From: Armatimonadota bacterium
GTDB taxonomy: Bacteria; Armatimonadota; UBA5829; DTLH01
Reading direction: 5' to 3'
Length of the DNA stretch: 17,621 nucleotides
Assembly (NCBI GenBank): GCA_039680575.1
Contig: JBDKSP010000090.1
Span: forward strand, 1 to 17,621
This document shows, one piece after another, positions 1 through 17,409 of this stretch (its first letter is position 1; each line of letters begins with the position of its first letter). A program made the position numbers and the translations under genes. The notes under the pieces are model-generated. The model was not told the origin of the DNA. It searched no databases and saw only the letters and a list, made by a program, of their open reading frames with translations.

Positions 1-1
1 A

Positions 2-151
2 TATAAACAGTTCTCTGATATAGCTTTATCTGTTGATTTTACACTTACACCTGAAACTCTTCCGGAAGATTTTCGGCAACAGCCAATATATGATTGGCCG
101 TTAATTAATCAGCTGAAAATCTATAGGGAACAGAAAGTAAACTATGTCTGA
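2..151 (+). CDS. 3' end of an upstream hypothetical protein (partial, runs off the window)
   Basis: Frame is open from base 2 (YKQFSDIALSVDFTLTPETLPEDFRQQPIYDWPLINQLKIYREQKVNYV*). Its TGA (149-151) overlaps the mazG start (ATGTCTGA), as in coupled genes. Not in the ORF track because its start lies outside the window. Confidence 0.55.
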   Translation, partial: YKQFSDIALSVDFTLTPETLPEDFRQQPIYDWPLINQLKIYREQKVNYV

Positions 152-929
152 TCGGATTGCAGAAGAATTCAGAAAACTTGTGGATGTTGTAGCAGCCTTG
201 AGAGGACCTTCTGGCTGCCCCTGGGATAAACAGCAGGATCATAAAAGCCTCCGAAAATACCTCATCGAAGAATCCTATGAAGTTATCGACGCAATCGATA
301 AAGACTCACCTGCAAAAATCGAAGAAGAACTCGGAGATGTATTGCTTCAGGTGCTCCTCCATTCGCAGATTGCTTCGGAACGCGGTGAATATGACGCAGC
401 GGATGTCTGCGAGCAGATCAGAAAGAAGCTGATACGGCGTCACCCTCATGTTTTCGGTGAGGTCGAGGTCGCAGGCGTCGATGATGTGCTCCACAACTGG
501 GAAGAGATCAAATCCAGGGAACCCGGCAGAGAGGAAATCACTTCTGCTATAGGCGGGGTCCCCGAAAGCTTGCCCGCGCTTATGAGAGCGGCGGAAATAT
601 CCAAGCGTGCCGCCAGAACAGGCTTCGAATGGCCGAATATGGAAGGTGTGCTGGACAAGCTCCATGAGGAAACCGAGGAACTTAAAGAAGCAATCGCTTC
701 AGATGACAAAGAGGAAGTCAAAAGTGAGATCGGGGACACACTCTTTACCATCGTGAACATCGCCAGATGGGCTAAAGTCGACCCGGAGGAATCGTTACGA
801 GAGATGCTTCAGAGATTCCAGACCAGGTTCTCAGCAATAGAGGACCACGCCCGCGCCGAAGGAAAGTCCATAGGCGATCTTACGATAAATGAGATGGACG
901 AGGTTTGGAATAGGGCGAAAGGAAGATAG
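144..929 (+). CDS. mazG: Nucleoside triphosphate pyrophosphohydrolase MazG (two MazG domains)
   Basis: LRGPSGCPWD, EESYEV, EELGDVLLQV, KLIRRHPHVF, LPALMRA, GFEW and second-domain EIGDTLF motifs. Confidence 0.95.
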   Translation: MSDRIAEEFRKLVDVVAALRGPSGCPWDKQQDHKSLRKYLIEESYEVIDAIDKDSPAKIEEELGDVLLQVLLHSQIASERGEYDAADVCEQIRKKLIRRHPHVFGEVEVAGVDDVLHNWEEIKSREPGREEITSAIGGVPESLPALMRAAEISKRAARTGFEWPNMEGVLDKLHEETEELKEAIASDDKEEVKSEIGDTLFTIVNIARWAKVDPEESLREMLQRFQTRFSAIEDHARAEGKSIGDLTINEMDEVWNRAKGR

Positions 930-959
930 CTGATAGCAATCAGCATTCAGCCGTCAGCT
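925..959. repeat. Five degenerate tandem heptamers
   Basis: GATAGCT GATAGCA ATCAGCA TTCAGCC GTCAGCT; contains the hairpin GCTGAT-agca-ATCAGC. Confidence 0.55.
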
Positions 960-1050
960 TCTGAACCGCGGAGACACGGAATAATCGGAAACGCGGAAGT
1001 CTCAACTGTATCGCCATTCCGCGCCCTACGCCCTGCCGCGATTCAAAAGC
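957..1050. repeat. 94-bp MITE/REP-like palindromic element
   Basis: Terminal inverted repeats GCTTCTGAACCGCGG (957-971) and CCGCGATTCAAAAGC (1036-1050) match at 13/15; inner inverted repeat CGCGGAA (992-998)/TTCCGCG (1017-1023). Confidence 0.55.
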
Positions 1051-1074
1051 CCTCACTTGTACTTACCCGCACTC

Positions 1075-1083
1075 TGGTACAAT
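1075..1083 (+). promoter_or_regulatory. Extended -10 promoter of the hydrolase gene
   Basis: TGgTACAAT, 5 nt before the ATG at 1089. Confidence 0.55.
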
Positions 1084-1088
1084 ACTCA

Positions 1089-1832
1089 ATGGAGCGGAAA
1101 AAGAGAATGCAGAGCTCAATTTGGAACGAATACGAACGCTTGGATTTTGAAGTAGAGAACCGTCCATCCCTGCTGGTCCTGCCGAAGACTGCGGCGTCCG
1201 GCAACCCGTGGATATGGCGAACGGAGTTTTTCGACGCATGGCCGGCGGTGGATATCGCCTTGCTGGATAGAGGCTTCCACGTGGCCTACATGAATATGAA
1301 GAATCAATACGGCGGTCCCCTGGCGATGAAGCACATGGACGCCTTCTATGCCTATCTCACCAGGGAACGCGGTCTCTCGCCGAAACCGGTGCTGGAAGGG
1401 TTCAGTCGGGGTGGCCTGTTTGCATACAACTGGGCAGCGCGCAATACTGGCAAAGTCGCCTGCATCTACGCCGACGCCCCCGTCTGCGACTTCAAGAGCT
1501 GGCCTGGCGGCAAGGGCGTCGGCGACGGTTCACCCGAAGACTGGGAGCGCTGCAAGGCCGTGTATTGCCTCACCGAGCAGGAAGCCCTGGATTATAAGCT
1601 CAATCCGATAGACATCCTTGAGCCTCTCGCCAAAGCCAACATCCCCCTGATCCACGTCTGCGGTGATGCGGACGCGGTAGTGCCGATGGAAGAGAACACA
1701 ATGGTTGTCGAGGATCGCTACAAGAAACTGGGCGGAACAATCGAGGTCATCACCAAACCAGGTTGCGGCCACCATCCGCACAGCTTGGAAGACCCGACAC
1801 CGGTCGTGGATTTCATGCTGAAGCACGTGTAG
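1089..1832 (+). CDS. Alpha/beta-hydrolase (esterase/peptidase S9-like); alternative start at 1107
   Basis: Nucleophile elbow GFSRGG, acid residue in HVCGDADAVVP, catalytic His in GHHPH. Confidence 0.85.
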   Translation: MERKKRMQSSIWNEYERLDFEVENRPSLLVLPKTAASGNPWIWRTEFFDAWPAVDIALLDRGFHVAYMNMKNQYGGPLAMKHMDAFYAYLTRERGLSPKPVLEGFSRGGLFAYNWAARNTGKVACIYADAPVCDFKSWPGGKGVGDGSPEDWERCKAVYCLTEQEALDYKLNPIDILEPLAKANIPLIHVCGDADAVVPMEENTMVVEDRYKKLGGTIEVITKPGCGHHPHSLEDPTPVVDFMLKHV

Positions 1833-1845
1833 CACACTGTCGATT

Positions 1846-1886
1846 CCCCCTCTCCCCAATGCGGGAGAGGGTCGGGGTAAGGGGGG
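1846..1886. repeat. REP-like GC-rich palindrome between convergent genes, possibly also a terminator
   Basis: CCCTCTCCC-caatgc-GGGAGAGGG (1848-1871) followed by tcggggtaagggggg; the common intergenic 'ccctctccc...gggagaggg' repeat type. Confidence 0.7.
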
Positions 1887-1901
1887 AGTCACGATCGATT
1901 A

Positions 1902-2621
1902 TCAAAGATTCATCAATACCGCGCTGATCTTCCCCGGAGCATCTATCTCGACTTTTCCGACGTAGTGAGCGAACCACCCCGCCTGCACAATCGCCGTTTT
2001 GCCCACCCATTCCGGCGATTCCAGCACGGTATGCGTGTGTCCGCCGACTATTAAGTCGATTTCCGGCACTGTTGCAGCCAGTTCTTTATCCTTCTTTAGC
2101 CCGATATGAGTCAACGCGATGAGTATATCTGCCCGTTCCCTCAATCCAGGGACTAATGCCGTCGCTGTTTTGATAGGATCATCGAAAACGCAGCAGGAAA
2201 CTTTTCTTGAAAGCATACGCTCTGTAATCATCGGCACGGTAAGCCCGAAGACAACTACCTTTATGCCGCCGATGTCGAAAGTCACGTCGCTTTTTACGGG
2301 GAGACCGGTATGGTTGGTGGAACGGATGTTGGCCGAGAGCACAGGAAACTCCGCCCAGCCGATCTTTTTTCTTAAGCCTGTCGCAAGAAAATGGAATTCC
2401 CTGTTGCCGAGCGCCATAGCGTCGTAACCGGCATCGTTCATCAGCTTCAGGACAGGTTCACCATCCGGGCGAAAGTAGATATTTCCCGCCCATATAGCGT
2501 CGCCACAGTCGAGAAGCAGGCTGTTCGGGACTGAATCCTTCATTTCTTTCAGTCTGGCAGCCTGCTCCTGAGTAAGCCGGTTATGGAAATCATTCGTATG
2601 AAAGACCGTTATCTTCTGCAC
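1902..2621 (-). CDS. Calcineurin-like metallophosphoesterase, 5'-nucleotidase/UshA N-terminal domain only, with a GNRE variant motif
   Basis: HTNDFH, LDCGD, ALGNREF, LTHIG, VGGHTH and AG...VG motifs; no signal peptide; no C-terminal 5'-nucleotidase domain; starts 3 nt after the kdsC stop. Confidence 0.85.
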   Translation of the reverse strand: MQKITVFHTNDFHNRLTQEQAARLKEMKDSVPNSLLLDCGDAIWAGNIYFRPDGEPVLKLMNDAGYDAMALGNREFHFLATGLRKKIGWAEFPVLSANIRSTNHTGLPVKSDVTFDIGGIKVVVFGLTVPMITERMLSRKVSCCVFDDPIKTATALVPGLRERADILIALTHIGLKKDKELAATVPEIDLIVGGHTHTVLESPEWVGKTAIVQAGWFAHYVGKVEIDAPGKISAVLMNL

Positions 2622-2624
2622 CGC

Positions 2625-3185
2625 TTAAGTGACCACTCCGGGAGCTTCGCCTCTTTCCTGCTCGGCTCGGAGAAGCTCAAGGAACCCCCGGACGCCGTCA
2701 TCCCATTTTCCCTGCTGTTTCAGGATCATTTCAATGGCCTCACGGACAGCGCCATGCCCGCCGGACTTCTCCGTTATAAAATCAGCCGAAGTCTTCACCT
2801 CTGATGCAGCATTCGCCACAGCAAACGCCGCCCCTGCCTCCTCTATTGCAGGAAGATCGTTCAGATCGTCGCCGATGTAGGCTACCTCATCGAGTGATAG
2901 CCCCTTTCGCTCGGTAATCTCTTTCAATGCAGCCGATTTATACCGCTGCCCCTGGTGGAGTTCGGTCACCATAAGCGATTTCGCGCGCTCCGTGACCGGC
3001 GCAGAGACGTTTCCGGTGATCCAGGCTATCTCGAGTCCGGCAGCTATCGCCAGACGAATACCAAGACCGTCCATCACGTTGAAGAGCTTCATCTCTCCTT
3101 CCGAGCCGTAAACCATAGACCCGTCAGTCAATACGCCGTCGACATCCATTGCGAGCAGCTTTATCCGGTTAAGTTTTTCAAACAT
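2625..3185 (-). CDS. kdsC: KDO-8-phosphate phosphatase (HAD, YrbI family)
   Basis: IKLLAMDVDGVLTDG, FNVMDGLGI, AYIGDDLNDL, GGHGAVRE; adjacent to kdsD. Confidence 0.93.
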   Translation of the reverse strand: MFEKLNRIKLLAMDVDGVLTDGSMVYGSEGEMKLFNVMDGLGIRLAIAAGLEIAWITGNVSAPVTERAKSLMVTELHQGQRYKSAALKEITERKGLSLDEVAYIGDDLNDLPAIEEAGAAFAVANAASEVKTSADFITEKSGGHGAVREAIEMILKQQGKWDDGVRGFLELLRAEQERGEAPGVVT

Positions 3186-3189
3186 CGTT

Positions 3190-4185
3190 TTAGAGTATTC
3201 CCGCCTGCAGCAGGTCTTTCAGCATAAGTATGCCTACGGGCTTGCCGGACTCGTCCAGTACCGGAATCTCGCCGATCTGCTTCTCACGGCTGTCCATCAG
3301 TTTCAGCCCTTCGGCTGCCAGCTTGTCCGGGTGGATGGTAGTAGGCGCGCTATTCATGGTACCGAAAACTTTTTGGTGAAGCGCAGCCTCGTCTTTCAAG
3401 AGCGCGCGCCTTATGTCGCCGTCCGTAACGAACCCGCTCAATTTTCCGTTAGCATCCTCAACACAGGCTGCGCCTGCGTGAGCTTTGGTGATGCTGAACA
3501 ACACGTCCCTGAGCAGCATATCCTCCGGTACGACTGCCACAGCGTCCCCTACCCTCATAACATCCGATACCCTGAGAAGAAGCCTTCTTCCGAGTGCTCC
3601 GGCGGGGTGTATCCGTGCAAAGTCATCTTTCGTAAACTTCCTGACCATCATAACCGAGAGCGCGAGCGCGTCTCCGAGCGCAAGCTGTGCTGTCGTGCTG
3701 GCTGTCGGAGCAAGATTATATACACAGGCCTCCCTCTCGACTGTGACATCGAGGATCGCCTGCGAGTATCTTGCTAGTGTAGATTCGGTATTTCCGACTA
3801 TAGCTATGATTTTGGAGCCAATTCGAGCAACTACAGGCAGTATACTGACCAACTCGTCGGATTCGCCGCTATGAGAGAGCGCAAGGAGCACATCATCCCC
3901 GGTCAAGACTCCGAGATCGCCGTGTACACCTTCCGCAGGGTGTAAAAATAGCGCCGGTGTGCCGGTGCTTGAGAAAGTTCCAGCCAGCTTGTGGCCTATT
4001 GCGCCGGATTTGCCCATACCCGTGATTACAAGCCGCCCTTTGCAGTTCGCAATCAATTCTACGGCATGGATGAAGTCGTCTCCCAGCCGACTCACCAATC
4101 CAGCGACCGCTGCCGACTCGATCTCAAGAACTTCACGAGCCCGTGTTATTACGCTTGCTTTATCTATATCTGTAAAATCTTTCAT
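3190..4185 (-). CDS. kdsD: Arabinose-5-phosphate isomerase (KpsF/GutQ family, SIS + CBS domains)
   Basis: GMGKSG, SSTGTPALFLHPAEGVHGDLG, LAPTASTT, GDALA, HPAGALG; C-terminal CBS pair (TDGDIRR). Confidence 0.95.
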   Translation of the reverse strand: MKDFTDIDKASVITRAREVLEIESAAVAGLVSRLGDDFIHAVELIANCKGRLVITGMGKSGAIGHKLAGTFSSTGTPALFLHPAEGVHGDLGVLTGDDVLLALSHSGESDELVSILPVVARIGSKIIAIVGNTESTLARYSQAILDVTVEREACVYNLAPTASTTAQLALGDALALSVMMVRKFTKDDFARIHPAGALGRRLLLRVSDVMRVGDAVAVVPEDMLLRDVLFSITKAHAGAACVEDANGKLSGFVTDGDIRRALLKDEAALHQKVFGTMNSAPTTIHPDKLAAEGLKLMDSREKQIGEIPVLDESGKPVGILMLKDLLQAGIL

Positions 4186-4193
4186 CCTGAAGC

Positions 4194-4202
4194 ATTATAG
4201 CA
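4194..4202 (-). promoter_or_regulatory. Extended -10 promoter of kdsD
   Basis: Minus strand TGcTATAAT, 8 nt before the ATG. Confidence 0.65.
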
Positions 4203-4268
4203 GAGCTTCGGCATAAGAAAAAGCCCGAAAAATTAAAATATTAAAATCAAAATAATCTCAATGCAGAC

Positions 4269-4297
4269 TTGCCATAGGTTGCTATAGGTTGTATAAT
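4269..4297 (+). promoter_or_regulatory. Sigma70-type promoter of the GAF-PP2C gene
   Basis: TTGCCA-17 nt-TATAAT with an A-rich UP-like tract upstream. Confidence 0.75.
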
Positions 4298-4335
4298 CAA
4301 CCCGATGTTATAGAAATGTCCAGTGATTATCATAT

Positions 4336-5637
4336 ATGCCAAATACTCGGAGATTGAGTCATAAATACTTGCGGAGGTACCATGCGAATATGCCCCTAGA
4401 CCGGCATGACAAGAGGCCTTCCGTCACAGGAAGACTTGCGGATGTAGCCCAGGAGCTGGCATTGGATGTCGAATGGGAAACCAGGCTGCAAAATGTTCTG
4501 TCGATGCTCCGCGAGATACTTTCCTCTGATCTCGCTGCTCTGGCCGTATTTATGGACGAGTGGAAGACCGTTATCTCTCCCCAATCCTTCGAAGATTCCG
4601 ACCTTCCGCGAAATCTCATAACCCATCATGCTGCTTTGGCCAACATCCCCTATCCGCCAAACCCTATCGCTTCGATTGCTGAGAATAAACCATGTCCATC
4701 CGGTTCCCTGACTATACCAATCCTCGGAGATGACAGATTTTTGGGCGTACTGCACATCGGAAACAAAAACGGAAGCACGTTTTCGCAGGATAATGTCAAT
4801 GTGCTTGCAATAGCCGCATCACTGATCGGCCTTTTCCTTCGAAACGTTATCGCGCAATCGAGCAAAATATACGTCCGGCAAGAGGTGGAAGCTCTGGAGA
4901 CCGCGTATGAAAGGGAACACCTGATAGCCGACACTTTCCAGCGGGCACTGATAACCGATGTCGCCCGTGACCTGCCCGGCCTGTCGATAGACGGTAAATA
5001 CCTGCCTGCGCTGAAAGAGGCTGAGATCGGCGGAGATTTCTACGATGTGTTCGACCTTGCCGACGGCAAGCTGGCTATAGTTGTGGGCGATGTATCGGGA
5101 AAAGGCCTCCGTGCGGCAGTCCATATGTCCACCGCAAAGAATATGCTCCGCGCTTATGCGCATGAAGACCCCGATCCATGCTACGTAATCGAGCGGCTCA
5201 ACCAGGCAATGTGCACATATACACCCGAAAACCTGTTTGTAACGATATTTTACGGCGTCCTGGACCCCGTAAAACGCACTTTAGTCTATAGCAATGCCGG
5301 ACATGATGAGCCGGTTCTCTACCGATACAGCTCAAATAGTGTTATCACCCTGGATGTTACAGGCCGCGCTGTTGGTATAATCCGCCAGAGCGGCTATGAC
5401 ACGAGGTTCTTGAGGCTTGAGCCGGGAGACGTACTGCTCATTTACACCGACGGGATCACCGACGCCAGGAATAATGGCCATTTTTTCGGGATCGAAGGTG
5501 TCTCCAGAGTCCTCATCAAAAACGCCGGTAAAAAGGAGCGAGCCATAGCCGACGCCGTATTCGAGGCCGCATCGGCAGCGGCAGCGGGCGATCTACGTGA
5601 CGACGCTGCCGTGCTTTTGATAAAAACAAAGCTTTAG
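4336..5637 (+). CDS. GAF domain + SpoIIE/RsbU-type PP2C serine phosphatase (start may be 4390)
   Basis: GAF signature LTIPIL...FLGVLHI...F; PP2C motifs GGDFYD, GDVSGKG, FVTIFYG, NAGH, YTDGITD, DDAAV. Confidence 0.9.
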   Translation: MPNTRRLSHKYLRRYHANMPLDRHDKRPSVTGRLADVAQELALDVEWETRLQNVLSMLREILSSDLAALAVFMDEWKTVISPQSFEDSDLPRNLITHHAALANIPYPPNPIASIAENKPCPSGSLTIPILGDDRFLGVLHIGNKNGSTFSQDNVNVLAIAASLIGLFLRNVIAQSSKIYVRQEVEALETAYEREHLIADTFQRALITDVARDLPGLSIDGKYLPALKEAEIGGDFYDVFDLADGKLAIVVGDVSGKGLRAAVHMSTAKNMLRAYAHEDPDPCYVIERLNQAMCTYTPENLFVTIFYGVLDPVKRTLVYSNAGHDEPVLYRYSSNSVITLDVTGRAVGIIRQSGYDTRFLRLEPGDVLLIYTDGITDARNNGHFFGIEGVSRVLIKNAGKKERAIADAVFEAASAAAAGDLRDDAAVLLIKTKL

Positions 5638-6332
5638 CCCCACACCTTCACCGGTTTGAAACCCGTGTGATCGACCGATGCAAGGTGGTAACGGACGCCC
5701 CCGACATCGCCGCGTAGGTAAGAACCGGTACCCTTGTGGATATGCCCATAGACCAGGATGTCGACCCGGTATTCCTGCAGCAGAGAACTGAACTCGTTGG
5801 GTCTCAGTCCCAGGTCGAACGGCGGGTAATGAAGCATAGCTATCTTCGTCGAGACACCTTCAGGGATGGATTCCAACCCCCGGCGGAGGTATGTTAGTTC
5901 CCTGTCGAATATCTTTTTGTCGCCTTCCGCTGTGCCTTCCAGGTTGCAATCTTCAAGCCGCCATCCCCTGGTACCTGCTATCCCGACTCCGTCAGCGACA
6001 CAGCTTGATCCCTGAAGGAGGGTTATGCTCGGGTCGAGCATCCGTTGTATCTTGTTTGTGGCCTGCCTGCCCCACCAGTAGTCGTGATTGCCCCTGATAA
6101 GTATCTTTCTGCCCGGGCGGGCTGCCAGATACTCCAGGTCCGGCATCGCATCGGGCAATTTGAGCGCCCATGATGTGTCGCCTGCGACAAGGACCAGATC
6201 ATCATGGGTAACAACTTCATCCCAATTACTGGCAATTTTCACGGGATGGTCCTTCCAATGCGGCCCGAATATATCCATCGGTTTCGGATTGGCGAATGAC
6301 AAATGCAGGTCTGCTATTGCATATATTATCAT
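5634..6332 (-). CDS. Metallophosphoesterase, COG1768/DR1119-like
   Basis: IADLHL, AGDTSW, RGNHDYWW, GTRGW, HYPP, YGHIH; its stop codon overlaps the stop of the convergent PP2C gene. Confidence 0.88.
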   Translation of the reverse strand: MIIYAIADLHLSFANPKPMDIFGPHWKDHPVKIASNWDEVVTHDDLVLVAGDTSWALKLPDAMPDLEYLAARPGRKILIRGNHDYWWGRQATNKIQRMLDPSITLLQGSSCVADGVGIAGTRGWRLEDCNLEGTAEGDKKIFDRELTYLRRGLESIPEGVSTKIAMLHYPPFDLGLRPNEFSSLLQEYRVDILVYGHIHKGTGSYLRGDVGGVRYHLASVDHTGFKPVKVWG

Positions 6333-6338
6333 ATACTA

Positions 6339-6347
6339 ATGATAACA
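6339..6347 (-). promoter_or_regulatory. Extended -10 promoter of the COG1768-like gene
   Basis: Minus strand TGtTATCAT, 6 nt before the ATG; no Shine-Dalgarno. Confidence 0.6.
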
Positions 6348-6468
6348 CCCCTGAAATCACGACAGTTATTCACACTATCGCTTAATAGTTGCTAGTTATA
6401 ACTGTATATATCCTTGATCTATCGCGCATTCGTAACAATAACTTAAGCGCACGGACGGTATTTTGCCC

Positions 6469-6497
6469 TTGTATGTGCAACCGATCATACATATAAT
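6469..6497 (+). promoter_or_regulatory. Sigma70-type promoter with no annotated downstream gene
   Basis: TTGTAT-17 nt-TATAAT. Confidence 0.7.
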
Positions 6498-6502
6498 TAT
6501 AA

Positions 6503-6580
6503 ATGAGGCAGGGATCATTCTTTGAATGGTCTGAACCTCCAGGCCGGGAAGTAGGCCAGGCTTCCCGGCCTATTTATTTT
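6503..6580 (+). ncRNA. Putative small RNA (about 75 nt), family not recognised
   Basis: Lies between a near-consensus promoter and an intrinsic terminator in the same orientation; internal hairpin GATCATTC-TTT-GAATGGTC; both flanking genes are on the minus strand. Confidence 0.55.
6541..6580 (+). terminator. Rho-independent terminator
   Basis: 11-bp perfect stem AGGCCGGGAAG-9 nt-CTTCCCGGCCT followed by ATTTATTTT. Confidence 0.8.
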
Positions 6581-6679
6581 CCCCATCTCTTCTCTACTAC
6601 TACTATTGATATGAAATAGACGTGCTCATATGTTTGGTTGGCAGCGGCGGGACAGGGTCGAAGCCGGATAGTGGGTGGT

Positions 6680-7714
6680 CTACTCGTCGGCAAACGGGTT
6701 GTAGTCCGGTTCCAGCAGTTCGTCTATGCTCTGAGCATCAGCAGATGGGTTCATTATCTCGGATGGCAGGCCTTTGAGCAGTGGCCGGTCGAATACCCAG
6801 TTCCTCTCCGTCCAGAGGTCGGATTCGCTTGCAGGAGCATCCTTACCCACAGCCTGCCTGAAGGTGTTAACCTTCGCGTCGAGGTCTTCCAAAACATGGA
6901 GGATAATAGCCTCAATGACTTTAGGCCGCTTTGCGGCTCCCCATTCTTTCTCTCCGTGATGAGAGAGTATAATGTGGACCATCACAGACTTGAGAAGCGG
7001 ATGGAAACCCTCGATTGTGTCGGCGGCTTCCTTTACCATCTGAGCGCCAATTACGACATGGCCGATCAGATGCCCGTTGTCGGAGTATCTTATCGACTTG
7101 TCCCAGCAGAACTCTTCCACCTTGCCGATGTCGTGCAGCACGGCTCCCGTTATAAGCAGGTCACGGTCCACGCCAGGGAAATGCGACGCTCCGAACTCAC
7201 ACAGCTTTGCGGCGGAGAGAGTATGCTCCAGCAGCCCGCCTATATAGGCATGGTGGATCTTTTGTGCAGCAGGCGCTGTAGAGAACCTGGATAGAAACTC
7301 CTGGTCTTTGAAGAAGTGGTCCAGAAGCGCTTTCAACTGCGGATGCTCGACCGAATCGATGATCTTTTTAAACTCTGCGAGCATCTCATCGATGTCTTTT
7401 TCCGAGCGGGGCAGAAAATCGGTCGGATCGATGCGGTCGTTATATGGACGGAAGGTATCGACCTTGATCTGCAGTCTGCCGTTATATGTGGTGACGATGC
7501 CCCGGACTCGAATGAATTCGTCACTCGATATTGCATCGCATGCTGCTTCGCTCGCATCCCACTTTATGGCATCGATGGTCCCGGTACGGTCGCCCAGCCT
7601 CATGCGTACAAACGGCGATCCATCCTGCGTGTAACCGAGTGATTTATTGTGTATAAGGAAAATGTCGTCGATCCGTGAGCCGTCGCACAGCCCGGACACA
7701 TAGTAGTTCTTCAT
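6680..7714 (-). CDS. yhaM: 3'-5' exoribonuclease YhaM/Cbf1 family (OB fold + HD domain)
   Basis: OB fold (LGDRTGTIDA..W, G.V..YNGRLQ); PAA..IHHAYIGGLLEHT, LHDIGK, GHLIGH, ILSHHG. Start moved to ATG 7714 (GGAG upstream) because ATG 7738 sits inside the -10 box. Confidence 0.9.
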   Translation of the reverse strand: MKNYYVSGLCDGSRIDDIFLIHNKSLGYTQDGSPFVRMRLGDRTGTIDAIKWDASEAACDAISSDEFIRVRGIVTTYNGRLQIKVDTFRPYNDRIDPTDFLPRSEKDIDEMLAEFKKIIDSVEHPQLKALLDHFFKDQEFLSRFSTAPAAQKIHHAYIGGLLEHTLSAAKLCEFGASHFPGVDRDLLITGAVLHDIGKVEEFCWDKSIRYSDNGHLIGHVVIGAQMVKEAADTIEGFHPLLKSVMVHIILSHHGEKEWGAAKRPKVIEAIILHVLEDLDAKVNTFRQAVGKDAPASESDLWTERNWVFDRPLLKGLPSEIMNPSADAQSIDELLEPDYNPFADE

Positions 7715-7733
7715 GCGCTCTTTCTCCAAAAGA

Positions 7734-7763
7734 ATCATACTCGTAGGAGGCAGGCGCTGTCAA
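7734..7763 (-). promoter_or_regulatory. Sigma70-type promoter of yhaM
   Basis: Minus strand TTGACA-18 nt-TATGAT. Confidence 0.7.
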
Positions 7764-7972
7764 CGGGCTACTCTTTGGAAAGTCTCTTTAGGGAGTTCTC
7801 TTTTAGTTCTAACTCATGATATACTATATAAATAAACGCCCGCCTGTAGTCAATAGATCAGTCAGTAGGTTGATGGTTCGCTTGCTTATCCTCCAGGCGT
7901 GCCATTTTATCGCATACTTGCTCATTCCAGCAGTAAGTTTGGCTAAAAATACAACTTATTGAGGGGGATAAC

Positions 7973-8947
7973 TTGAATAAGCGGATCAGCTGGATTGACT
8001 ATGCAAAAGGCATCGGCATTATTTTAGTAGTATACGGTCACGTACTCCAGGGATTGTGCAAAGTCGGCCTTGACATTTCACCCAAGATATTCAGCTTTTC
8101 AAATTCACTGGTATATGGGTTTCACATGCCGTTATTTTTCCTCCTTTCCGGCATGTTTGCAGAAAGCTGGCTCGCCAAATACAAAACCTCAAGCGCAATT
8201 AAGGCTAAAGTATTCTCAATATTATGGCCGTACCTCGTCTGGTCACTTGTGCAGGGTGCTGTCAGTGTCGGGGTATCCGATTATACAAACTACCCAATGA
8301 CGTGGCCCACAGTTCTCAAAAGAATCCCTTTATCCCCATTCCTGCAGTTTTGGTTTCTGTATGTTTTGTTTATACAGCACATGCTTTATCTTGTACTGCG
8401 CCGTTATCTGAACCCAAAAGCAATTGCGATTGTCTCACTGGCCTTGTACATCGTATGTCCTTGGCTCAATTTTTGGGTTACAGAGCGGGTGTTCAGGTTC
8501 TTTATCTACTTCTGCCTTGGAGCGCTTATAAACCGCAACAGCATAGAGAGCGTCCTGAGCAAGTTTGACAACAAGTGGGGTTTTTCCGCAGCGATATTGG
8601 GGTTTGCCGGGATTAACGCTTTGTATCTTTCAGGGAAGGTAGATTTTCCACAGTTTAGCGTGATCATTGCCCTTGCGGGGGTTATCCTGACTATTTTAGT
8701 GTCGCACAGACTGGCGCAGTCATCGATACTGCAATGGCTCCGGGTAGTGGGAACACTATCAATGCCGATTTATCTGCTGCACGTAATGAGTGGTGCGGCA
8801 GCAAGGATAATTCTTCTGTACTGTTTTAAAGTCCGTGATGTCTATATTCACGCGATCCTCGGATGCGCTACCGGTGTAATTCTACCTGTGCTGTTCTACA
8901 AAGCTATGACGAAGATTAAAGCCAACACCCTGCTTTTCGGAAGATGA
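7973..8947 (+). CDS. Acyltransferase family 3 membrane protein (polysaccharide O-acyltransferase-like)
   Basis: RISWIDYAKGIGIILVVYGH, FHMPLFFLLSG, WFLYVLF, SMPIYLLH; many hydrophobic segments; GAGGGG Shine-Dalgarno before the TTG start. Confidence 0.92.
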   Translation: MNKRISWIDYAKGIGIILVVYGHVLQGLCKVGLDISPKIFSFSNSLVYGFHMPLFFLLSGMFAESWLAKYKTSSAIKAKVFSILWPYLVWSLVQGAVSVGVSDYTNYPMTWPTVLKRIPLSPFLQFWFLYVLFIQHMLYLVLRRYLNPKAIAIVSLALYIVCPWLNFWVTERVFRFFIYFCLGALINRNSIESVLSKFDNKWGFSAAILGFAGINALYLSGKVDFPQFSVIIALAGVILTILVSHRLAQSSILQWLRVVGTLSMPIYLLHVMSGAAARIILLYCFKVRDVYIHAILGCATGVILPVLFYKAMTKIKANTLLFGR

Positions 8948-8962
8948 TAACAGAAAGATTTT

Positions 8963-9775
8963 TCAGTTATTATCTCTCTGCCTTGCGGCTTCGTAAGCCA
9001 TAATCGCAGAGGATACGGCGATGTTGAGCGACTCCATCTTCCCAGCCATCGGTATTTGGATGAACCAGTCGGCTATGTCACGGATCGATTGCCGGACGCC
9101 AGTGTGTTCGTTCCCCACGATCAAGACACGGGAACCGGTGAAATCGGTAGCCCAGATGTTTTTTGTGGCATGGGCAGACGACGCAACCACTTTGAACCCT
9201 TCCTCCTGTGCCTGCGCCAGCCAGTTTTCAGGTTCGGAGACTATAGCGAGCCTCAGGCTGAGGACGGAGCCCCGAGAAGCCCTTACGCACAGCCTGGAGA
9301 ACGGGTCGACGCTGTCTGATGTGATGGCAACGCCGTCTACCCCGGCTGCATCGAGAGATCTGAGAAGCATCCCCAGGTTATCCGGGTTTTCGCACCTGTC
9401 TATGAGCATCAAAAGCGGGTTTTCACCGTCCAGCAGCTCAGAAGGTTTGTACAAACGCCGTTCGACGACCGCGACGACACCCGGAGCGGGCTTGGCTGGC
9501 ACGATTTTTGTCATGAGCCCTTCGGTGACGGAATAAATGTTCACTCCAGACTGTTCTGATGCGATTTGGATACTTTGACACTCGGCTGAGGACAGAAATT
9601 TGTCTGTGAATACGATACACCGAACGCCGGGACCGTATTCCAGAGCGCGGCTCACGAGCATAGCGCCTTCTACGTGGAACGCGCCGGTCTCGGCGCGTGA
9701 TCTCTCGGTCTGCAGATCACGAAGCATCTGAATGACCTGATGCTTCTGGCTGTCTATTCGTTCGATATCCATCAT
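8963..9775 (-). CDS. TrmH/SpoU-family RNA 2'-O-methyltransferase
   Basis: VEG, NPDNLGMLLRS, RASRG, VGNEHTG, IPMAGKMESLNIAVS SPOUT motifs. Confidence 0.92.
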   Translation of the reverse strand: MMDIERIDSQKHQVIQMLRDLQTERSRAETGAFHVEGAMLVSRALEYGPGVRCIVFTDKFLSSAECQSIQIASEQSGVNIYSVTEGLMTKIVPAKPAPGVVAVVERRLYKPSELLDGENPLLMLIDRCENPDNLGMLLRSLDAAGVDGVAITSDSVDPFSRLCVRASRGSVLSLRLAIVSEPENWLAQAQEEGFKVVASSAHATKNIWATDFTGSRVLIVGNEHTGVRQSIRDIADWFIQIPMAGKMESLNIAVSSAIMAYEAARQRDNN

Positions 9776-9790
9776 TTACTCTACATATAG

Positions 9791-9820
9791 CAAAAGCCGC
9801 CCGATAACGGACGGCTTTTG
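9791..9820 (-). terminator. Intrinsic terminator downstream of tRNA-Ala (potentially bidirectional)
   Basis: Minus strand CAAAAGCCGTCCG-TTAT-CGGGCGGCTTTTG. Confidence 0.8.
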
Positions 9821-9827
9821 TCGATTC

Positions 9828-9903
9828 TGGTGGAGCCAAGGGGATTCGAACCCCTGACCTATTGGCTGCCAGCCAACCGCTCTCCCAGCTGAGCTATGGC
9901 CCC
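9828..9903 (-). tRNA. tRNA-Ala(GGC)
   Basis: GGGGCCATAGCTCAGCTGGGAGAGCGGTTGGCTGGCAGCCAATAGGTCAGGGGTTCGAATCCCCTTGGCTCCACCA: 76 nt, anticodon GGC, G3:U70 Ala identity pair, TTCGAA T-loop, encoded CCA. Confidence 0.98.
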
Positions 9904-9917
9904 TCGAAGACACTAAT

Positions 9918-9946
9918 AATATACCATCGGTCGGAAATTACGTCAA
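9918..9946 (-). promoter_or_regulatory. Sigma70-type promoter of tRNA-Ala
   Basis: Minus strand TTGACG-17 nt-TATATT with a TG extension. Confidence 0.8.
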
Positions 9947-9950
9947 GCGT

Positions 9951-10169
9951 TTATGAGCGTAAAAAAGAGTCAGCTTTCATGCTGCAGCTGAATTTAATCC
10001 TAAAAACATCCGACAGCCTAAATCTCAATAAGGGTTCACTCTTACTGAGAGATTGTACATCAACTCGAACAACCAACACATCATCATGGAAGGACGTCAC
10101 CCTGAAACTCTCCAATGTTATACTCATCAACTCTGAACTCTTATAAATATCCATCCATTTGAAATTCAT
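9951..10169 (-). CDS. Small hypothetical protein or gene remnant (72 aa)
   Basis: AGGTGAT Shine-Dalgarno 6 nt before the ATG; fills an otherwise empty AT-rich gap; no recognisable motif. Confidence 0.35.
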   Translation of the reverse strand: MNFKWMDIYKSSELMSITLESFRVTSFHDDVLVVRVDVQSLSKSEPLLRFRLSDVFRIKFSCSMKADSFLRS

Positions 10170-10247
10170 GCTATAATCACCTGCTTTTTGGCAACCTTAC
10201 GCTCAGTTTCCGATAAACCGTATATTTTCTTGGTAATGATATACGTA

Positions 10248-10264
10248 TTGGCATATATAATGCA
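10248..10264 (+). promoter_or_regulatory. Putative sigma-54 (-24/-12) promoter of the PEP-CTERM gene
   Basis: TTGGCATATATAATGCA: GG-N10-GC, close to the consensus YTGGCAC-N5-TTGCW. Confidence 0.6.
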
Positions 10265-10347
10265 GAGATTAGTTGCACCGAGCAACCTGGAACCGATGGG
10301 CTGGCTGCTCGAGCAATATAATAAAAACGAGAAGGGAGGGAAAATTA

Positions 10348-11037
10348 GTGAAAACAAGACTGATGATATATATGGTGATAGCGTTGCTGGCAATCTCTGT
10401 CGCGGCTCAGGCAGCGATCACACTTTACACTCCGGCTGCGGGAGATGCCACATATTCATGGAACAGCAAATACGCCGATACCAGCTATGGTGTGGGCGAA
10501 AACGCTATGGGCATCGGTCTGAATAATGGCGGCTTTTATGGTAATGACTACACAGTGTCGATTTTCGAAATTCCCGTTATCGGACTTACCGGCAAGACCT
10601 TGACCAGTGCGACACTCTTGGTGGATTCGCTCGGGTTTAACACAGGTTACTATTATGGTTCAGCATCTATCGGTTGGCTAGATACCGGAACAGCTACACT
10701 TACCGGCGATGTGGTAGCAGATAAGCTGGGGCCTGTCAGCACGAGTCGGCCCGGTGGATTTACAATCTATGACAGTGGCTCCGTCGATACACCAGGTCTT
10801 AAGTCGTTCGATGTCCTGACCTGTGTCCAAGCGGACTTAACCGCTGGCCGAACGTTTTCGACATTCGTCATGTCCGGTTCGAGAGACACCTATGGTTCGA
10901 TCTGCACCGCCGAGAGCGGCTCAGGTCCACGGATTGTTGCCGACGTCGCTGGTAATAACGTACCCGAGCCAACGACAATCACAGTGCTGGGCGCAGGCTT
11001 GGCGAGTCTACTGTTCAGGAGAAGGCGCGAGGGATAA
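10348..11037 (+). CDS. Secreted PEP-CTERM sorting-domain protein
   Basis: GGAGG Shine-Dalgarno before GTG 10348; signal peptide ending AQA; C-terminal VPEP + hydrophobic helix + RRRR. Confidence 0.92.
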   Translation: MKTRLMIYMVIALLAISVAAQAAITLYTPAAGDATYSWNSKYADTSYGVGENAMGIGLNNGGFYGNDYTVSIFEIPVIGLTGKTLTSATLLVDSLGFNTGYYYGSASIGWLDTGTATLTGDVVADKLGPVSTSRPGGFTIYDSGSVDTPGLKSFDVLTCVQADLTAGRTFSTFVMSGSRDTYGSICTAESGSGPRIVADVAGNNVPEPTTITVLGAGLASLLFRRRREG

Positions 11038-11059
11038 TCACAGACCTTTAGCCCATTCC

Positions 11060-11087
11060 ACCCGCCATAGCTTTCGCTATGGCGGGT
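11060..11087. terminator. Strong hairpin between convergent genes
   Basis: 12-bp perfect stem ACCCGCCATAGC-TTTC-GCTATGGCGGGT; weak U-tract. Confidence 0.6.
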
Positions 11088-11169
11088 TGGATGGTTGATT
11101 AAGGCAATCGGCAGGTTCGGTGCAAAGGACACGCACTAAAAGCAGACGCCTTCACCTACAGAAGAGCCT

Positions 11170-11847
11170 CTATGGCTTCTTCTCTGAATCCGACAGCTTG
11201 GCTGATGTGATGACCGCGTCTATCACGCTGTAGATATAGAGAAACACCATTATGCCGGTGAAAATGATTACCAGTGAGCCTAGGGGCGGCGGTTTCACGG
11301 CTGATCCCGACGGGTTGAGCCACACGCCGACGTTCCTGAGCAGGTTTCCCGTGTCCGGCGAGACAGAGAGGATCAGGACAGAAAACAAAAACACGCCAAG
11401 GATTATAAGCCCCTTTATCCTCTCGCCGTTATACAGCTGCCCCAGCCCCGGAACCACCGCAGACAGCAGAAACGCAGCGAGCGGGTGCTGCGGCGGGTTC
11501 GAATACTTGCCTGGGTTCTCTATCATATCGCGGGCGAGTTTTTTCTCATACTCGTTCTCGCCCTTCTCAAGCATCACTTTGGCGTACTTGGTCTCAGCAG
11601 ACGCGCAACCGGGGTTGGCTTCCATGATGTTCTTATATTCCTCGGCTGCCGATTCCAACTGCCCGCGCCCGTAAAGCATATCCGCCATCATCTCATGCAC
11701 GTCCACGCGGGACTCATCGAGCGAGAGCACTTCTTTCAGCACATCTTCGGCCTCGATATACTCGCCCCTCATCCGGTGGACGTTCGCGCGCGAGAGCAGC
11801 CGGTCTATCTCCGCTTTACGCTTGATATCTTCAGAGTCTGTTGACAT
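11170..11847 (-). CDS. TPR-repeat membrane protein with a C-terminal TM2/DUF5683-like segment
   Basis: TPR-like helices (RGEYIEAEDVLKEVL, RGQLESAAEEYKNIM); PLAAFLLSAVVPGLGQLYNG..KG followed by transmembrane helices; start placed at ATG 11847, just after the rsfS stop. Confidence 0.8.
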   Translation of the reverse strand: MSTDSEDIKRKAEIDRLLSRANVHRMRGEYIEAEDVLKEVLSLDESRVDVHEMMADMLYGRGQLESAAEEYKNIMEANPGCASAETKYAKVMLEKGENEYEKKLARDMIENPGKYSNPPQHPLAAFLLSAVVPGLGQLYNGERIKGLIILGVFLFSVLILSVSPDTGNLLRNVGVWLNPSGSAVKPPPLGSLVIIFTGIMVFLYIYSVIDAVITSAKLSDSEKKP

Positions 11848-11852
11848 AGGTT

Positions 11853-12206
11853 TTATTTTGCGGCCAGCCGCTCCTCCGTAGCCCGCCACAGGGACTCGAG
11901 GTCGTAGAAATCCCTCTCCTCCGGCGCGAATACGTGAAGCACAACATCTCCGTAATCGACAAGCACCCATTTAGCTTCGCTGTAGCCTTCGACACGGTCA
12001 GCACGCTGGCCTTGCTCCTTCATTCTTTCCAGTGTCTTATCGACAATCGCTCTGATATGCACGTTGGACGTGCCGCTTGCCAGTACAAAATAATCTGCGA
12101 TGATCGTCCTGTCCCGCAGGTCGATTACTTCGACGTTTTCCGCTTTCTGGTCGACAACTGCGTTTCGGACTATCTCAAGCCTCTTATCGGTTTCTAAATT
12201 GGTCAT
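11853..12206 (-). CDS. rsfS: Ribosome silencing factor RsfS (Iojap)
   Basis: KAENV, ADYFVLASG, WVLVDYGDVVLHVF, RDFYDLESLW. Confidence 0.96.
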   Translation of the reverse strand: MTNLETDKRLEIVRNAVVDQKAENVEVIDLRDRTIIADYFVLASGTSNVHIRAIVDKTLERMKEQGQRADRVEGYSEAKWVLVDYGDVVLHVFAPEERDFYDLESLWRATEERLAAK

Positions 12207-12229
12207 ATTCCTGTCTTATTATCTCTTTC

Positions 12230-13444
12230 TCACTGCTTGTAGTTTTTACCTATAATCACGGTAATATCGGCACTAGCAGATGTACTTTCTGAATCGGCAG
12301 CCGTTTTTACCTCTGCATTTCCTACCAGCGGGGCTATTTCCCTGGCTTTGTCCTCCATCCCGGCGCGAGCATTGATCTGAGAGCGTTCATAGTTGAAACC
12401 GCTTGCATTACCGGTCGATATTACCCTGTAACCCAGCGTCTGCAGTTGGTCCGCAACCTGCTTCGCAAGCCCTGCCGTACCGGAACCGTTCAGCACTTCC
12501 ACACTCGGAGCGAGGTTTCCGCCTCCCGGAAGCAGGAGCTTCGCTACCTGTTCCGATGTCTTTGCCGTGTCGATTACCCAATAGCTGGCGCCATCGATAT
12601 TCTGAGGCGCTCCCGCCGCCATCTCCATCTCCATTTTGTCCGGCGGAATATCGCGTGCAAGCTCAACAAGCGCCTTCAGGTCCTTCAGGTTCAGGTTAGT
12701 CTTTACATAACCCTTTTCGTAGATTTCGCCGACTACCGCAGGCGCATGCACGAGGTTCTTAGGTTCCAGCATGTGCCGGGCAATCGCCCGGAGAAACTTC
12801 TGCTGGCGCTGGATGCGCGTTATATCACCCAGCTTATCGTGCCTGAACCTGACGTATTGAAGCGCCTGGTCTCCGTTCAGGTGCCTGTAACCTTTTCTGA
12901 GGTTGATATAGAGTCCGCCTCGCCGGTCGGTGTAGTGCATGTTTTTCTCGACATCGATCCCCACACCTCCAAGCAAATCGACTATGTTCTTCAGCCCGGC
13001 AATATCCGTCTGCATATAGTAGTCGACCTTGACACCGAGCACACCCTGAACGGCATTAACCGCAAGCTCCGGTCCACCGATAGAATACGCTGCGTTGATC
13101 TTGCTGGTGCCATGACCAGGAATTTCTATCATGGTATCCCTGGGGACCGATAGCCCTCGAACGGTCTTTTTATCCATATCGACCGCAACTACGAGAATCG
13201 TGTCGGACAGACCCCGGCCTGTGGCACTGGATTTATGCGTATTGTCTTCGCCGAGCGCAAGAATCCTCACAAACCTCTGACCATTGAAAGGAGGCTTCAT
13301 CATCTGCGTCACGGTTGTATGCGCTGCACGAAGCATGAAATACGCCTTAACGCCCCCATATCCGATTGCAGCGCCAAGCACTATGGATATGATCCATGGC
13401 CAGATGCACTTTTTCTGTTTGCCATCAGCCGGTTTTTGCATCAC
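12230..13444 (-). CDS. LCP (LytR-CpsA-Psr) family protein with a C-terminal LytR_C domain
   Basis: N-terminal transmembrane helix; SDTI, SVPRDT, KINAAY, ALQYVRFRHD..GDITRIQRQQ; C-terminal VEVLNGSGTAGLA ... DITVIIGKNY. Confidence 0.93.
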   Translation of the reverse strand: MMQKPADGKQKKCIWPWIISIVLGAAIGYGGVKAYFMLRAAHTTVTQMMKPPFNGQRFVRILALGEDNTHKSSATGRGLSDTILVVAVDMDKKTVRGLSVPRDTMIEIPGHGTSKINAAYSIGGPELAVNAVQGVLGVKVDYYMQTDIAGLKNIVDLLGGVGIDVEKNMHYTDRRGGLYINLRKGYRHLNGDQALQYVRFRHDKLGDITRIQRQQKFLRAIARHMLEPKNLVHAPAVVGEIYEKGYVKTNLNLKDLKALVELARDIPPDKMEMEMAAGAPQNIDGASYWVIDTAKTSEQVAKLLLPGGGNLAPSVEVLNGSGTAGLAKQVADQLQTLGYRVISTGNASGFNYERSQINARAGMEDKAREIAPLVGNAEVKTAADSESTSASADITVIIGKNYKQ

Positions 13445-14106
13445 TTTTCCACCACGTACAACTTATTATCGGTTATATAATCCTCTACCGCTTTTGGAAC
13501 CATATATTTAATGGGCCTGCCGGAAGCAGCACGGTTTCTGAGATCAGTTGCCGAAACATTCACTCCCGGAGCATCCATGAAGGTTATGCGTTCCAAATAT
13601 TCCTCAGGTAGTTTCTTTTTTACATCAGAAAGGCGATACCCCGGCCTTGTCGTGGCGATGAACCTGCACATACATCTGAGCTTCTCAGGCTTGTACCACG
13701 TTAGAATTTCGAGAATCGCATCCGCGCCTATTATAAAGAATAGACGAGTATTATTGCCATAGATTTTCTTAAGCTCTGCGAGCGTATCGACCGCGTAGGA
13801 TGGACCGGACCTGTCGATCTCGATTCTGGAGACCTCGAATGCCGGGTTGTCTTCCGTCGCCAGCACGGTCATATCGAACCGGTGTTCCTTATCCGTGATA
13901 GGCCGGTCCGGCTTGTGAGGAGGCACACCTGCCGGAATAAAAATCACCCGGTCGAGCTGAAACTGATACCTGGCTTCCTCTGCGATGATCAGGTGCCCCA
14001 GGTGAATCGGGTCGAACGTCCCGCCTATAATACCTATACGCGCGCCGGAGCCCTGTTCCTCGCACTCACTAATCACCGGTTTTTGATTTTCAGTCCCCAT
14101 ACGCAT
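13441..14106 (-). CDS. nadD: Nicotinate-nucleotide adenylyltransferase
   Basis: GGTFDPIHLGH, PPHK, SYAVDTL, FIIGADA, VSATDLR, P..VEDYI...LY. Confidence 0.95.
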   Translation of the reverse strand: MRMGTENQKPVISECEEQGSGARIGIIGGTFDPIHLGHLIIAEEARYQFQLDRVIFIPAGVPPHKPDRPITDKEHRFDMTVLATEDNPAFEVSRIEIDRSGPSYAVDTLAELKKIYGNNTRLFFIIGADAILEILTWYKPEKLRCMCRFIATTRPGYRLSDVKKKLPEEYLERITFMDAPGVNVSATDLRNRAASGRPIKYMVPKAVEDYITDNKLYVVEK

Positions 14107-14165
14107 CTATATAGTAAGAAGAAACTAAACGCCAGTTTGTTCGAGGAAATCTGCACAATCTGCCC

Positions 14166-15550
<1,385 letters not shown>

Positions 15551-15560
15551 AGCTCAAAAG

Positions 15561-16553: not shown

Positions 16554-17409
16554 CAGCGTCCTCCTTACCACAGAAGTCCAGCAGCTTGACCAGAGTCTGC
16601 TTCATATCTCTTCGCGCTACTACCATATCGATCATTCCGTGGTCGAGCTGGAACTCCGCTCTCTGGAAGTTCGGCGGGCGGTTGATGACTCCGGCCTGTT
16701 GGGCAACCCTCTCTCCAGCGAAACCTATCAGCGCGCCGGGCTCCGCTATGATGACATCACCGATAGATGCGTAACTTGCATGCACTCCGGCGGTCGTCGG
16801 ATCGCACAGGACGACTATATACGGTAGTCCGGCCTCGTTCAGCTTTCCGATAGCCGCACTCGTTTTCGCCATCTGCATAAGTGAGAGTATCCCCTCCTGC
16901 ATCCTGGCGCCGCCGGAAGCGGAAAAGAGAATGAGCGGCCTTTTTTCTTCGATTGCCCGCTCGACAGCAAGGACGACTTTCTCGCCCTGCACACCGCCCA
17001 TGCTGCCCCCCATAAATCCGAAGTCAGCCACACCTATCACAACGGGACGCGATTCTATCGCAGCCGTGCCTACGAGCATCGATTCGTTGATGCCTGATGT
17101 CTGCCGGCCTTTTTTGATTTTTGCTTCATAATCCGGAAAATTGAGCGGGTTTGCGGTACTGATATCAGTTGCAAACTCATCGAAGCTGCCGGGATCGACC
17201 GTGAAAGCCAGCCGCTCTTCCGCCCGCAGCCTGAAGTGATAGTTACACTTGCTGCAGACCCGCAGGTTCTTTTCCAGTTCCTTGTTAAATAGTATTTCAT
17301 TACACTTCGGACACTTAGTCCAGAGGCCGTCAGGAAGCGCATCTACACTCTTGCGCGCGATCTTCTGAGCACTCTTCGACTTACGTCCGAACCAGCCTAT
17401 ATTTGCCAT
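16543..17409 (-). CDS. accD: Acetyl-CoA carboxylase carboxyltransferase beta subunit
   Basis: Zinc finger LWTKCPKC...[40 protein letters not shown]...GMID. Confidence 0.97.

Follow-up and report, generated by a model that had tools for sequence, protein, structure and literature searches.

The stretch analysed here, referred to as the window, comprises 17,621 nucleotides (nt) of an Armatimonadota bacterium (assembly GCA_039680575.1, contig JBDKSP010000090.1, positions 1 to 17,621 of the forward strand). Its main subject is the third gene of a reverse-strand cluster, which follows kdsD and kdsC with intergenic gaps of 4 nt (kdsD-kdsC) and 3 nt (kdsC to the third gene) and encodes a metallophosphoesterase (hereafter MPP) related to UshA (Table 1). 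The original prediction, made from the letters alone, had described a kdsD-kdsC operon ending in a 239-amino-acid (aa) UshA-type domain with GNRE in place of GNHE, and had proposed that this protein may perform the LpxH step of lipid A synthesis or be another LPS-linked nucleotide-sugar hydrolase. The operon, its spacing, the UshA-type domain and the GNRE motif with its AGG codon are all borne out by the open reading frames (ORFs) and the profile scores. The protein had also been described as devoid of a signal peptide and of a C-terminal domain, which agrees with a first metal motif that begins at residue 8 and with a Pfam match to PF00149 alone, the 5_nucleotid_C domain not being in the same chain. 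Similarly the arginine, held to be an unlikely product of a single-base error, proved genuine: GNR is found in 120/120 of the best MPP homologs (117 GNRE and 3 GNRD; those with a taxonomic label are Armatimonadota), which rules out a sequencing error at this codon.

Table 1 Features of the kdsD-kdsC-MPP cluster, in window coordinates
Feature	Position	Strand	Details
kdsD (arabinose-5-phosphate isomerase, SIS + 2 CBS), first gene of the cluster	3190..4185	-	331 aa; TIGR00393 (KpsF/GutQ-type) 293.7 bits, cut-off 203.7
kdsC (Kdo-8-phosphate phosphatase family, HAD)	2625..3185	-	186 aa; TIGR01670 161 bits, cut-off 107
MPP, GNR-type catalytic-domain-only UshA-fold metallophosphoesterase, candidate UDP-2,3-diacylglucosamine pyrophosphatase	1902..2621	-	239 aa, GTG start
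GNREFH motif, G72-N73-R74-E75-F76-H77	2391..2408	-	R74 codon AGG at 2400-2402
MPP residues 129-146, loop and short helix, possible membrane- or acyl-binding flap	2184..2237	-	proposed from composition and model

The MPP displays the fold of the UshA/5'-nucleotidase N-domain (Escherichia coli UshA 1USH, T. thermophilus 2Z1A, H. influenzae NadN 3ZTV and human CD73) with the same order of metal ligands. Its profile matches are confined to the N-terminal domain of UshA/5'-nucleotidase models, all under the full-length cut-offs, and HHalign aligns it to E. coli UshA with a probability of 99.9%. The AlphaFold model (mean predicted local distance difference test score 96.5) begins its first strand at residue 3 and contains a helix at residues 137-140, and a structure search (VIA) matches it to 5'-nucleotidase catalytic domains over ~230 residues with Z 27-28 and a root-mean-square deviation of 2.3-2.8 Å. 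The top rows of a fold search are also 5'-nucleotidases; the displayed rows do not include LpxH, but this does not show LpxH to be absent from the matches. The predicted metal ligands D11, H13, D41, N73, H172, H195 and H197, together with R74, are invariant in 71/71 diverse aligned sequences. HHalign places GNREFH of the MPP on GNHEFD of UshA, with R74 at the position of the His and H77 at that of the Asp; some relatives have N, F, G or E at the latter position. The His-Asp pair of the UshA motif, which has a catalytic role, is changed in the GNR proteins, where GNHEFD becomes GNRE(F/S/T/L/Y)(H/N/F).

Besides the motif, the MPP differs from UshA in lacking a signal peptide and the C-terminal domain, which in UshA supplies an arginine and base stacking, in occurring as a single copy in lipopolysaccharide (LPS) gene clusters, and in its more hydrophobic 129-146 flap. 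The first metal motif begins within the first 10 residues in 168/184 short GNR proteins, so that no room is left for a signal peptide, as read from the motif position and not from a predictor; within the first 110 residues of the MPP the highest 19-residue hydropathy is 1.15. In the 129-146 segment the fraction of large hydrophobic residues is 0.43 in GNR proteins (n=62) versus 0.29 in GNH relatives (n=40) and the net charge +1.0 versus +0.3, while the mean hydrophobicity differs little (0.09 versus 0.03); these are comparisons of related sequences, and hence no P value is claimed. The domain-only form is not unusual by itself, because catalytic-domain-only 5'-nucleotidases of ~310 aa with GNHD are found in Bacteroidota records.

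Such catalytic-only proteins, and the fact that the source genome encodes a UshA-type N-domain and a C-domain just once each and in different genes, would accord with a split 5'-nucleotidase, in which the MPP is the catalytic half, a stand-alone 5_nucleotid_C protein on another contig (C23; L214:1393-2055) the substrate-binding half, and the LPS neighbourhood incidental. This arrangement is highly improbable. The C-domain gene has a signal-peptide-like start, judged by eye, and the MPP has none; its UshA motifs are degenerate, the GGGIR and PFGN stretches being replaced by ASELK and AYTDD; and the two genes are unlinked, whereas the LPS linkage of the MPP is kept across two phyla.

Three classes of enzyme are named that hydrolyse UDP-2,3-diacylglucosamine, LpxH, LpxI and LpxG (2025 review PMC12444477; 2026 paper PMC13018214), and they replace one another non-orthologously (PMC4807358). 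The MPP resembles LpxH (TIGR01854/PRK05340; E. coli b0524, P. aeruginosa structures in PMC5016852) in belonging to the binuclear metallophosphoesterase superfamily, in its length of ~240 aa, in GNR at motif III, in the terminal GHxH and in the reaction proposed. In contrast, no homology to LpxH is recognisable beyond the superfamily, and the MPP descends from 5'-nucleotidases. A divergent LpxH was ruled out, as neither TIGR01854 nor PRK05340 matches at E 0.001 and the HHalign probability to E. coli LpxH is 1% (E 0.056). The arginine of the MPP would thus be convergent with that of LpxH, where Mn2+ binds the α-phosphate and Arg80 forms a salt bridge with the β-phosphate, and where arginine at this His position is stated to be unique among metallophosphoesterases (PMC5016852). 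The equivalent His of CthPnkp is needed for Mn-dependent monoesterase but not for diesterase activity (PMC2190708), and its loss therefore fits a non-monoesterase role. In LpxG (Chlamydia Ct461, NF033458), a calcineurin-like phosphoesterase has been recruited separately to make lipid X (PMC4807358); LpxG carries GNHD and a predicted N-terminal transmembrane helix, whereas the MPP has neither and does not match NF033458. LpxI (PF06230) catalyses the same overall reaction and often lies inside the lpx cluster (lpxACDIBK, PMC5007114), but is unrelated in sequence and mechanism and attacks the β-phosphate (PMC4807358). Searches of an open-access literature library found no description of the GNR family. 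The MPP is a real LPS-linked, UshA-derived subfamily, which is a member neither of LpxH, of LpxG nor of canonical UshA.

The lipid A pathway of the source genome (96.8% complete) lies on contig C95, which carries bamA, skp, lpxD, lpxC, fabZ, lpxA, lpxB, a gene for an LmtA-like methyltransferase, msbA, a waaA-lpxK fusion and lpxL, genes without a profile match being named from their translations. A canonical lpxH, lpxI or lpxG elsewhere in this genome would, according to the original prediction, have refuted the proposed role, and none was found above cut-off; LpxI_C and TIGR01854 gave no match at all, while the control matches in Caulobacter and E. coli were obtained. Among 11 PF00149 genes, GNR within a full motif set occurs only in the MPP of the window. 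GT-C and GT2 glycosyltransferase genes lie on other contigs, away from the kds-MPP cluster. A single 797-aa ORF (C95:32142-34535; L003:4143-6536, reverse strand) joins WaaA, the Kdo transferase, to LpxK; the two also share one ORF in another genome (G155) and are separate in two (G214 and G128). The LmtA-like (PEMT) methyltransferase gene follows lpxB (L003:8912-9646, reverse strand), scores 46.6 bits on TIGR04571, below cut-off, and is common in the lpx clusters of Vulcanimicrobiota too; its place in the lpx operon points to methylation of the lipid A 1-phosphate, the situation in Leptospira.

An even draw of 251 Armatimonadota genomes contains LpxC in 250/251 and LpxB in 248/251, and LpxI and LpxH, each over cut-off, in 0/251. 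Armatimonadetes are noted as having lpxABCD (PMC5007114), and phyla with neither lpxH nor lpxH2 are noted in PMC3087551. LpxH2-like proteins were rejected as the Armatimonadota enzyme: weak TIGR01854 matches occur in just 19/251 genomes, are all GNHD and fall in families that also have the GNR gene, and P. aeruginosa lpxH2 is cited as not complementing (PMC3087551). The MPP family profile matches in 212/251 genomes, a count that includes some whose best match is a full-length GNH nucleotidase. GNR was read directly, from the top matches listed, at 82 loci in as many genomes of 39 families, 22 of the loci having only 1.5-kb flanks. The gene is preceded directly by kdsC at 36/82 loci and by kdsC or kdsD at 48/82 (26/39 families), in some cases following kdsD with no intervening kdsC. 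A membrane glycosyltransferase of ~630 aa (GT-C, DUF8201/PMT_2-like) is encoded within 1.4 kb downstream at 40/82 loci, and at least one of the kdsC, kdsD and GT-C neighbours is present at 65/82; the 17 loci with none belong mainly to families f13, f21 and f26. Further downstream lie a second GT-C gene and a GT2 gene, joined by lptB-like and lptF/G genes in a single family. Metagenomic GNR loci present a kds- or GT-C-type neighbour in 56/77 distinct cases, or 31/39 where at least 1 kb is available on both sides, and at one metagenomic locus (L490:2329-4711) an lpxD-like gene, kdsC and a GNRE gene of divergent sequence stand side by side in this order.

In a sample of 80 genomes the GT-C glycosyltransferase is near-universal and mostly single-copy (78/80; for example C117:14860-16947 in the source genome, and L158:5301-7247 and relatives), with a conserved operon kdsC-(MPP)-GT-C-GT-C-GT2, and a search with the GT-C profile found no solved relative. 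The GNR gene as an obligate partner of GT-C is ruled out, since the 78 genomes include those without the GNR gene, and an obligate link to KdsD, present in 79/80, is likewise unsupported. In genome G234 the family match (C5:68878-69722) is split into two pieces directly after kdsD, through a frameshift or an assembly error.

In many families the gene comes immediately behind kdsC or kdsD, and this placement, together with the UshA ancestry, would suit a soluble hydrolase of nucleotide sugars or sugar phosphates acting with UshA-like chemistry on Kdo/LPS precursor pools (CMP-Kdo, UDP-sugars, Kdo-8-phosphate), with lipid X made by a YkuE/LpxG-like or unknown enzyme. Proteins scoring below cut-off on the LpxG model do occur in the source genome, in families f8 and f12 and in part of f33. 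This explanation appears unlikely. The sub-cut-off scores are not diagnostic, because LPS-free controls (Bacillus, Lactococcus and Methanosarcina) match too; the nucleoside-binding domain of UshA is absent from the MPP; and no kds gene is found next to the MPP in the mapped loci of Vulcanimicrobiota, where the gene follows lpxB.

In that second phylum, Vulcanimicrobiota (Eremiobacterota), LpxB is present in 99/101 sampled genomes, LpxI in 0/101, and TIGR01854, run on 80 of the genomes, in 0/80 even at E 1e-5. A best short match was picked for 88 genomes among 150 matches listed: in 78 it shares the strand of lpxB and is found no more than 5 kb downstream of it (in 42, no more than 200 nt), while of the remaining 10 eight are on a different contig, one is on the opposite strand and one is in a genome without an LpxB match. 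The gene lies in or beside the lpx cluster in 11 further genomes (10 of them in an inverted block), bringing the total located to 99/101; one more region ended without a GNR gene. GNRE was read in 45/45 genomes whose fetched region held the gene; one ortholog from this phylum lies at L369:7113-7862. The usual orders are lpxD-lpxC-fabZ-lpxA-lpxB-MPP-TIGR03492 and lpxA-lpxB-(LpxB-like)-methyltransferase-MPP-TIGR03492, TIGR03492 being an LpxB-related glycosyltransferase. These clusters (L354-L373, L388-L399) encode up to three LpxB-like proteins, namely LpxB, TIGR03492 and a divergent paralog, which some ORFs of 805-844 aa join to LpxB; no waaA, lpxK or kds gene was seen in the same regions. A Gfo/Idh/MocA dehydrogenase gene before lpxA suggests a diamino backbone.

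A FastTree phylogeny of 102 domains, for which 40 Armatimonadota sequences and 30 GNH database rows were drawn at random, places all 62/62 GNR tips in a single clade (support 1.0) that branches from among GNH 5'-nucleotidases and splits into an Armatimonadota branch (0.975) and a branch of Vulcanimicrobiota plus two fusion proteins (0.952). In a library of 1.84 billion proteins, 80 GNR proteins were found among the top 150 matches, each ~40% or more identical to a member of the Armatimonadota or Vulcanimicrobiota set; the library carries no taxonomy, and these proteins could come from other phyla. Two relatives on viral contigs are both GNHE. GNR homologs were recovered just from two LPS-gene-bearing phyla or from records without taxonomy and mostly adjoin kds or lpx genes, in keeping with the LPS linkage that the original prediction had looked for. 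The sole constant across Armatimonadota and Vulcanimicrobiota is the LpxB pathway without LpxH or LpxI.

A probability of about one half is assigned to the reading that the MPP is a fourth, independently evolved UDP-2,3-diacylglucosamine pyrophosphatase, which would have supplied lipid X from the time when Armatimonadota and Vulcanimicrobiota still shared an ancestor. The adjacency to lpxB in Vulcanimicrobiota is the stronger support, ahead of the kds link. It would have arisen once, in that ancestor, from a periplasmic, full-length 5'-nucleotidase or UDP-sugar hydrolase that lost its export signal and substrate-binding domain and converged on the His-to-Arg change of LpxH. The resulting protein, presumably cytoplasmic, would take the fourth step of lipid A synthesis by splitting UDP-2,3-diacylglucosamine to yield UMP and the lipid X that LpxB uses. 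A pair of metal ions (probably Mn2+) may activate a water molecule for attack on the α-phosphate, as in LpxH and LpxG. R74 could hold the β-phosphate in the manner of LpxH Arg80 and offset the arginines lost with the UshA C-terminal domain, while the 129-146 flap may dock on the inner membrane or on the acyl chains, thus replacing the helical insertion of LpxH.

Several observations weigh against this assignment. The LpxH helical insertion (~residues 119-173, flanked by the His of motif IV and by GHxH) is absent from the MPP, in which H172 and H195 are 23 residues apart and joined by one helix, as compared with 81 residues between H114 and H195 of P. aeruginosa LpxH (PMC5016852); the LpxH-type lipid-binding lid for which the original prediction suggested a structural comparison is not present in the predicted model. 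The lipid X step is feasible without a conserved LpxH insertion, as LpxG shows (PMC5016852, PMC4807358). Three YkuE/YaeI-like proteins of the source genome (genes at C21:20021-20890, C94:5936-6931 and C108:19467-20318) match the LpxG model below its cut-off of 350 bits, with scores of 158, 144 and 87; two of the three display GNHD and an N-terminal hydrophobic stretch as in LpxG. Genomes within a phylum are kin, and the counts given here are not independent.

The gene is also missing from three Armatimonadota families. A broader profile at E 1e-8 found no short GNR gene in f8 (0/21), f12 (0/4) or f33 (0/12), assemblies of 1-3 contigs included; of its three matches in f8, two are GNHE proteins of full length and the third is broken. 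The 37 genomes retain LpxC (37), LpxB (36), KdsD (37) and GT-C (36). Lipid X can evidently be made in Armatimonadota without the GNR gene, since these families keep the LpxB pathway, and the lack of LpxH and LpxI does not single out the GNR gene, because some lineages manage without it. At 7/8 f8 loci kdsC abuts the GT-C gene, the GNR gene being cleanly gone with no substitute, and neither the kdsC-GT-C site nor, for the lineages inspected, the surroundings of lpxB and lpxC revealed a replacement hydrolase. Metallophosphoesterase inventories of four f8/f12/f33-type genomes yielded no GNR protein among the 34/41 matches extracted automatically nor among the other 7 read by eye. Two f33 genomes (G114 and G123, 90-91% complete) have LpxB and LpxC, and no LpxH, LpxI, LpxG-like or GNR gene was detected in them; they may encode a further, different enzyme for lipid X. 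So clean a loss is as compatible with a modifier that can be dispensed with as with an essential enzyme that was displaced. If the MPP is the lipid X enzyme, the families that lost it would use another one. In f8, FabZ and LpxA are fused in proteins of ~490-560 aa (L400, L401, L403, L404), and lpxC stands alone elsewhere in the genome.

A further point of the same kind is the company of the MPP in Vulcanimicrobiota, where TIGR03492 directly follows at 42/45 loci, is kept even through the inversion, and is fused to the MPP in two 650-aa proteins, P0225 (305 bits, cut-off 219) and P0281, which are 55.5% identical and, being sisters in the tree, probably stem from one event. This partnership, with the GT-C gene downstream in Armatimonadota and the LmtA-like methyltransferase often encoded between lpxB and the MPP, points to the main alternative, which is less probable than the lipid X role, in which a cytoplasmic phosphoesterase acts after LpxB and trims or processes a phosphate or methyl-phosphate on the lipid A disaccharide or early core for neighbouring glycosyltransferases. 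The latter would be TIGR03492 in Vulcanimicrobiota and GT2 plus two GT-C enzymes in Armatimonadota, and the methyl-phosphate would come from the LmtA-like methyltransferase; a non-essential modification would also explain the clean loss in f8, f12 and f33. However, the partners are not co-distributed with the MPP. TIGR03492 is missing from the source genome and from 4/5 other Armatimonadota tested, 2/3 of the gene-bearing ones among them, so that its partnership is lineage-specific, and the GT-C family, kept in nearly all genomes of the three families without the GNR gene, also occurs in Chloroflexota-dominated clusters. Loss of the active-site His argues against a monoesterase (PMC2190708), and such a role leaves Armatimonadota and Vulcanimicrobiota alike with a gap at the lipid X step. 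Only weak GT-B structural matches were obtained for TIGR03492, which may, as a speculation, be a core-sugar transferase. The proposal of an alternative LpxH-step enzyme is therefore sustained in part: the lack of LpxH, LpxI and LpxG over cut-off in the source genome and the LPS linkage speak for it, while the missing LpxH insertion, the three families without the gene and the TIGR03492 and GT-C partners do not.

Around the cluster, a promoter scan of window positions 1700-4500 gave 4 matches versus 2.3 +/- 1.5 by chance, which is not above chance. Divergent to kdsD lies a GAF-SpoIIE phosphatase gene (4269-5637, forward strand), with a sigma-70-like promoter match of 11/12 at 4269-4297. A second metallophosphoesterase, of GNHD type and 232 aa (5634-6332, reverse strand), stands after an OB-HD gene (6680-7738); its match to PRK05340 is very weak (20 bits, cut-off 134), and its linkage to the cluster occurs only in the source genome and at one other locus (L115). 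The forward strand carries mazG (144-929) and an alpha/beta hydrolase gene (1089-1832). A tRNA-Ala(GGC) gene occupies 9828-9903, and a housekeeping run on the reverse strand (11170-17409) comprises accD, accA, obgE, a nadD-like gene, an LCP-LytR_C gene, rsfS and a gene for a TPR protein. The 254-aa product of the ORF at 10273-11037 (forward strand) has no Pfam match and ends in VPEPTT, a hydrophobic stretch and a basic tail, which we take to resemble a PEP-CTERM sorting signal.

A lipid X enzyme outside the LpxH, LpxI and LpxG lineages is a gap in the otherwise conserved Raetz pathway, and the MPP family provides a single-copy, apparently soluble candidate for this step in two phyla. If the assignment is correct, an enzyme would have been recruited independently to the lipid X step once more, and another scaffold would have converged on the arginine of LpxH; the Armatimonadota lineages without the GNR gene, LpxH, LpxI and, in G114 and G123, LpxG-like genes would then need a fifth solution. 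If it fails, the MPP would still be an LPS-linked enzyme family, and the neighbouring TIGR03492 and GT-C genes would become the leads.

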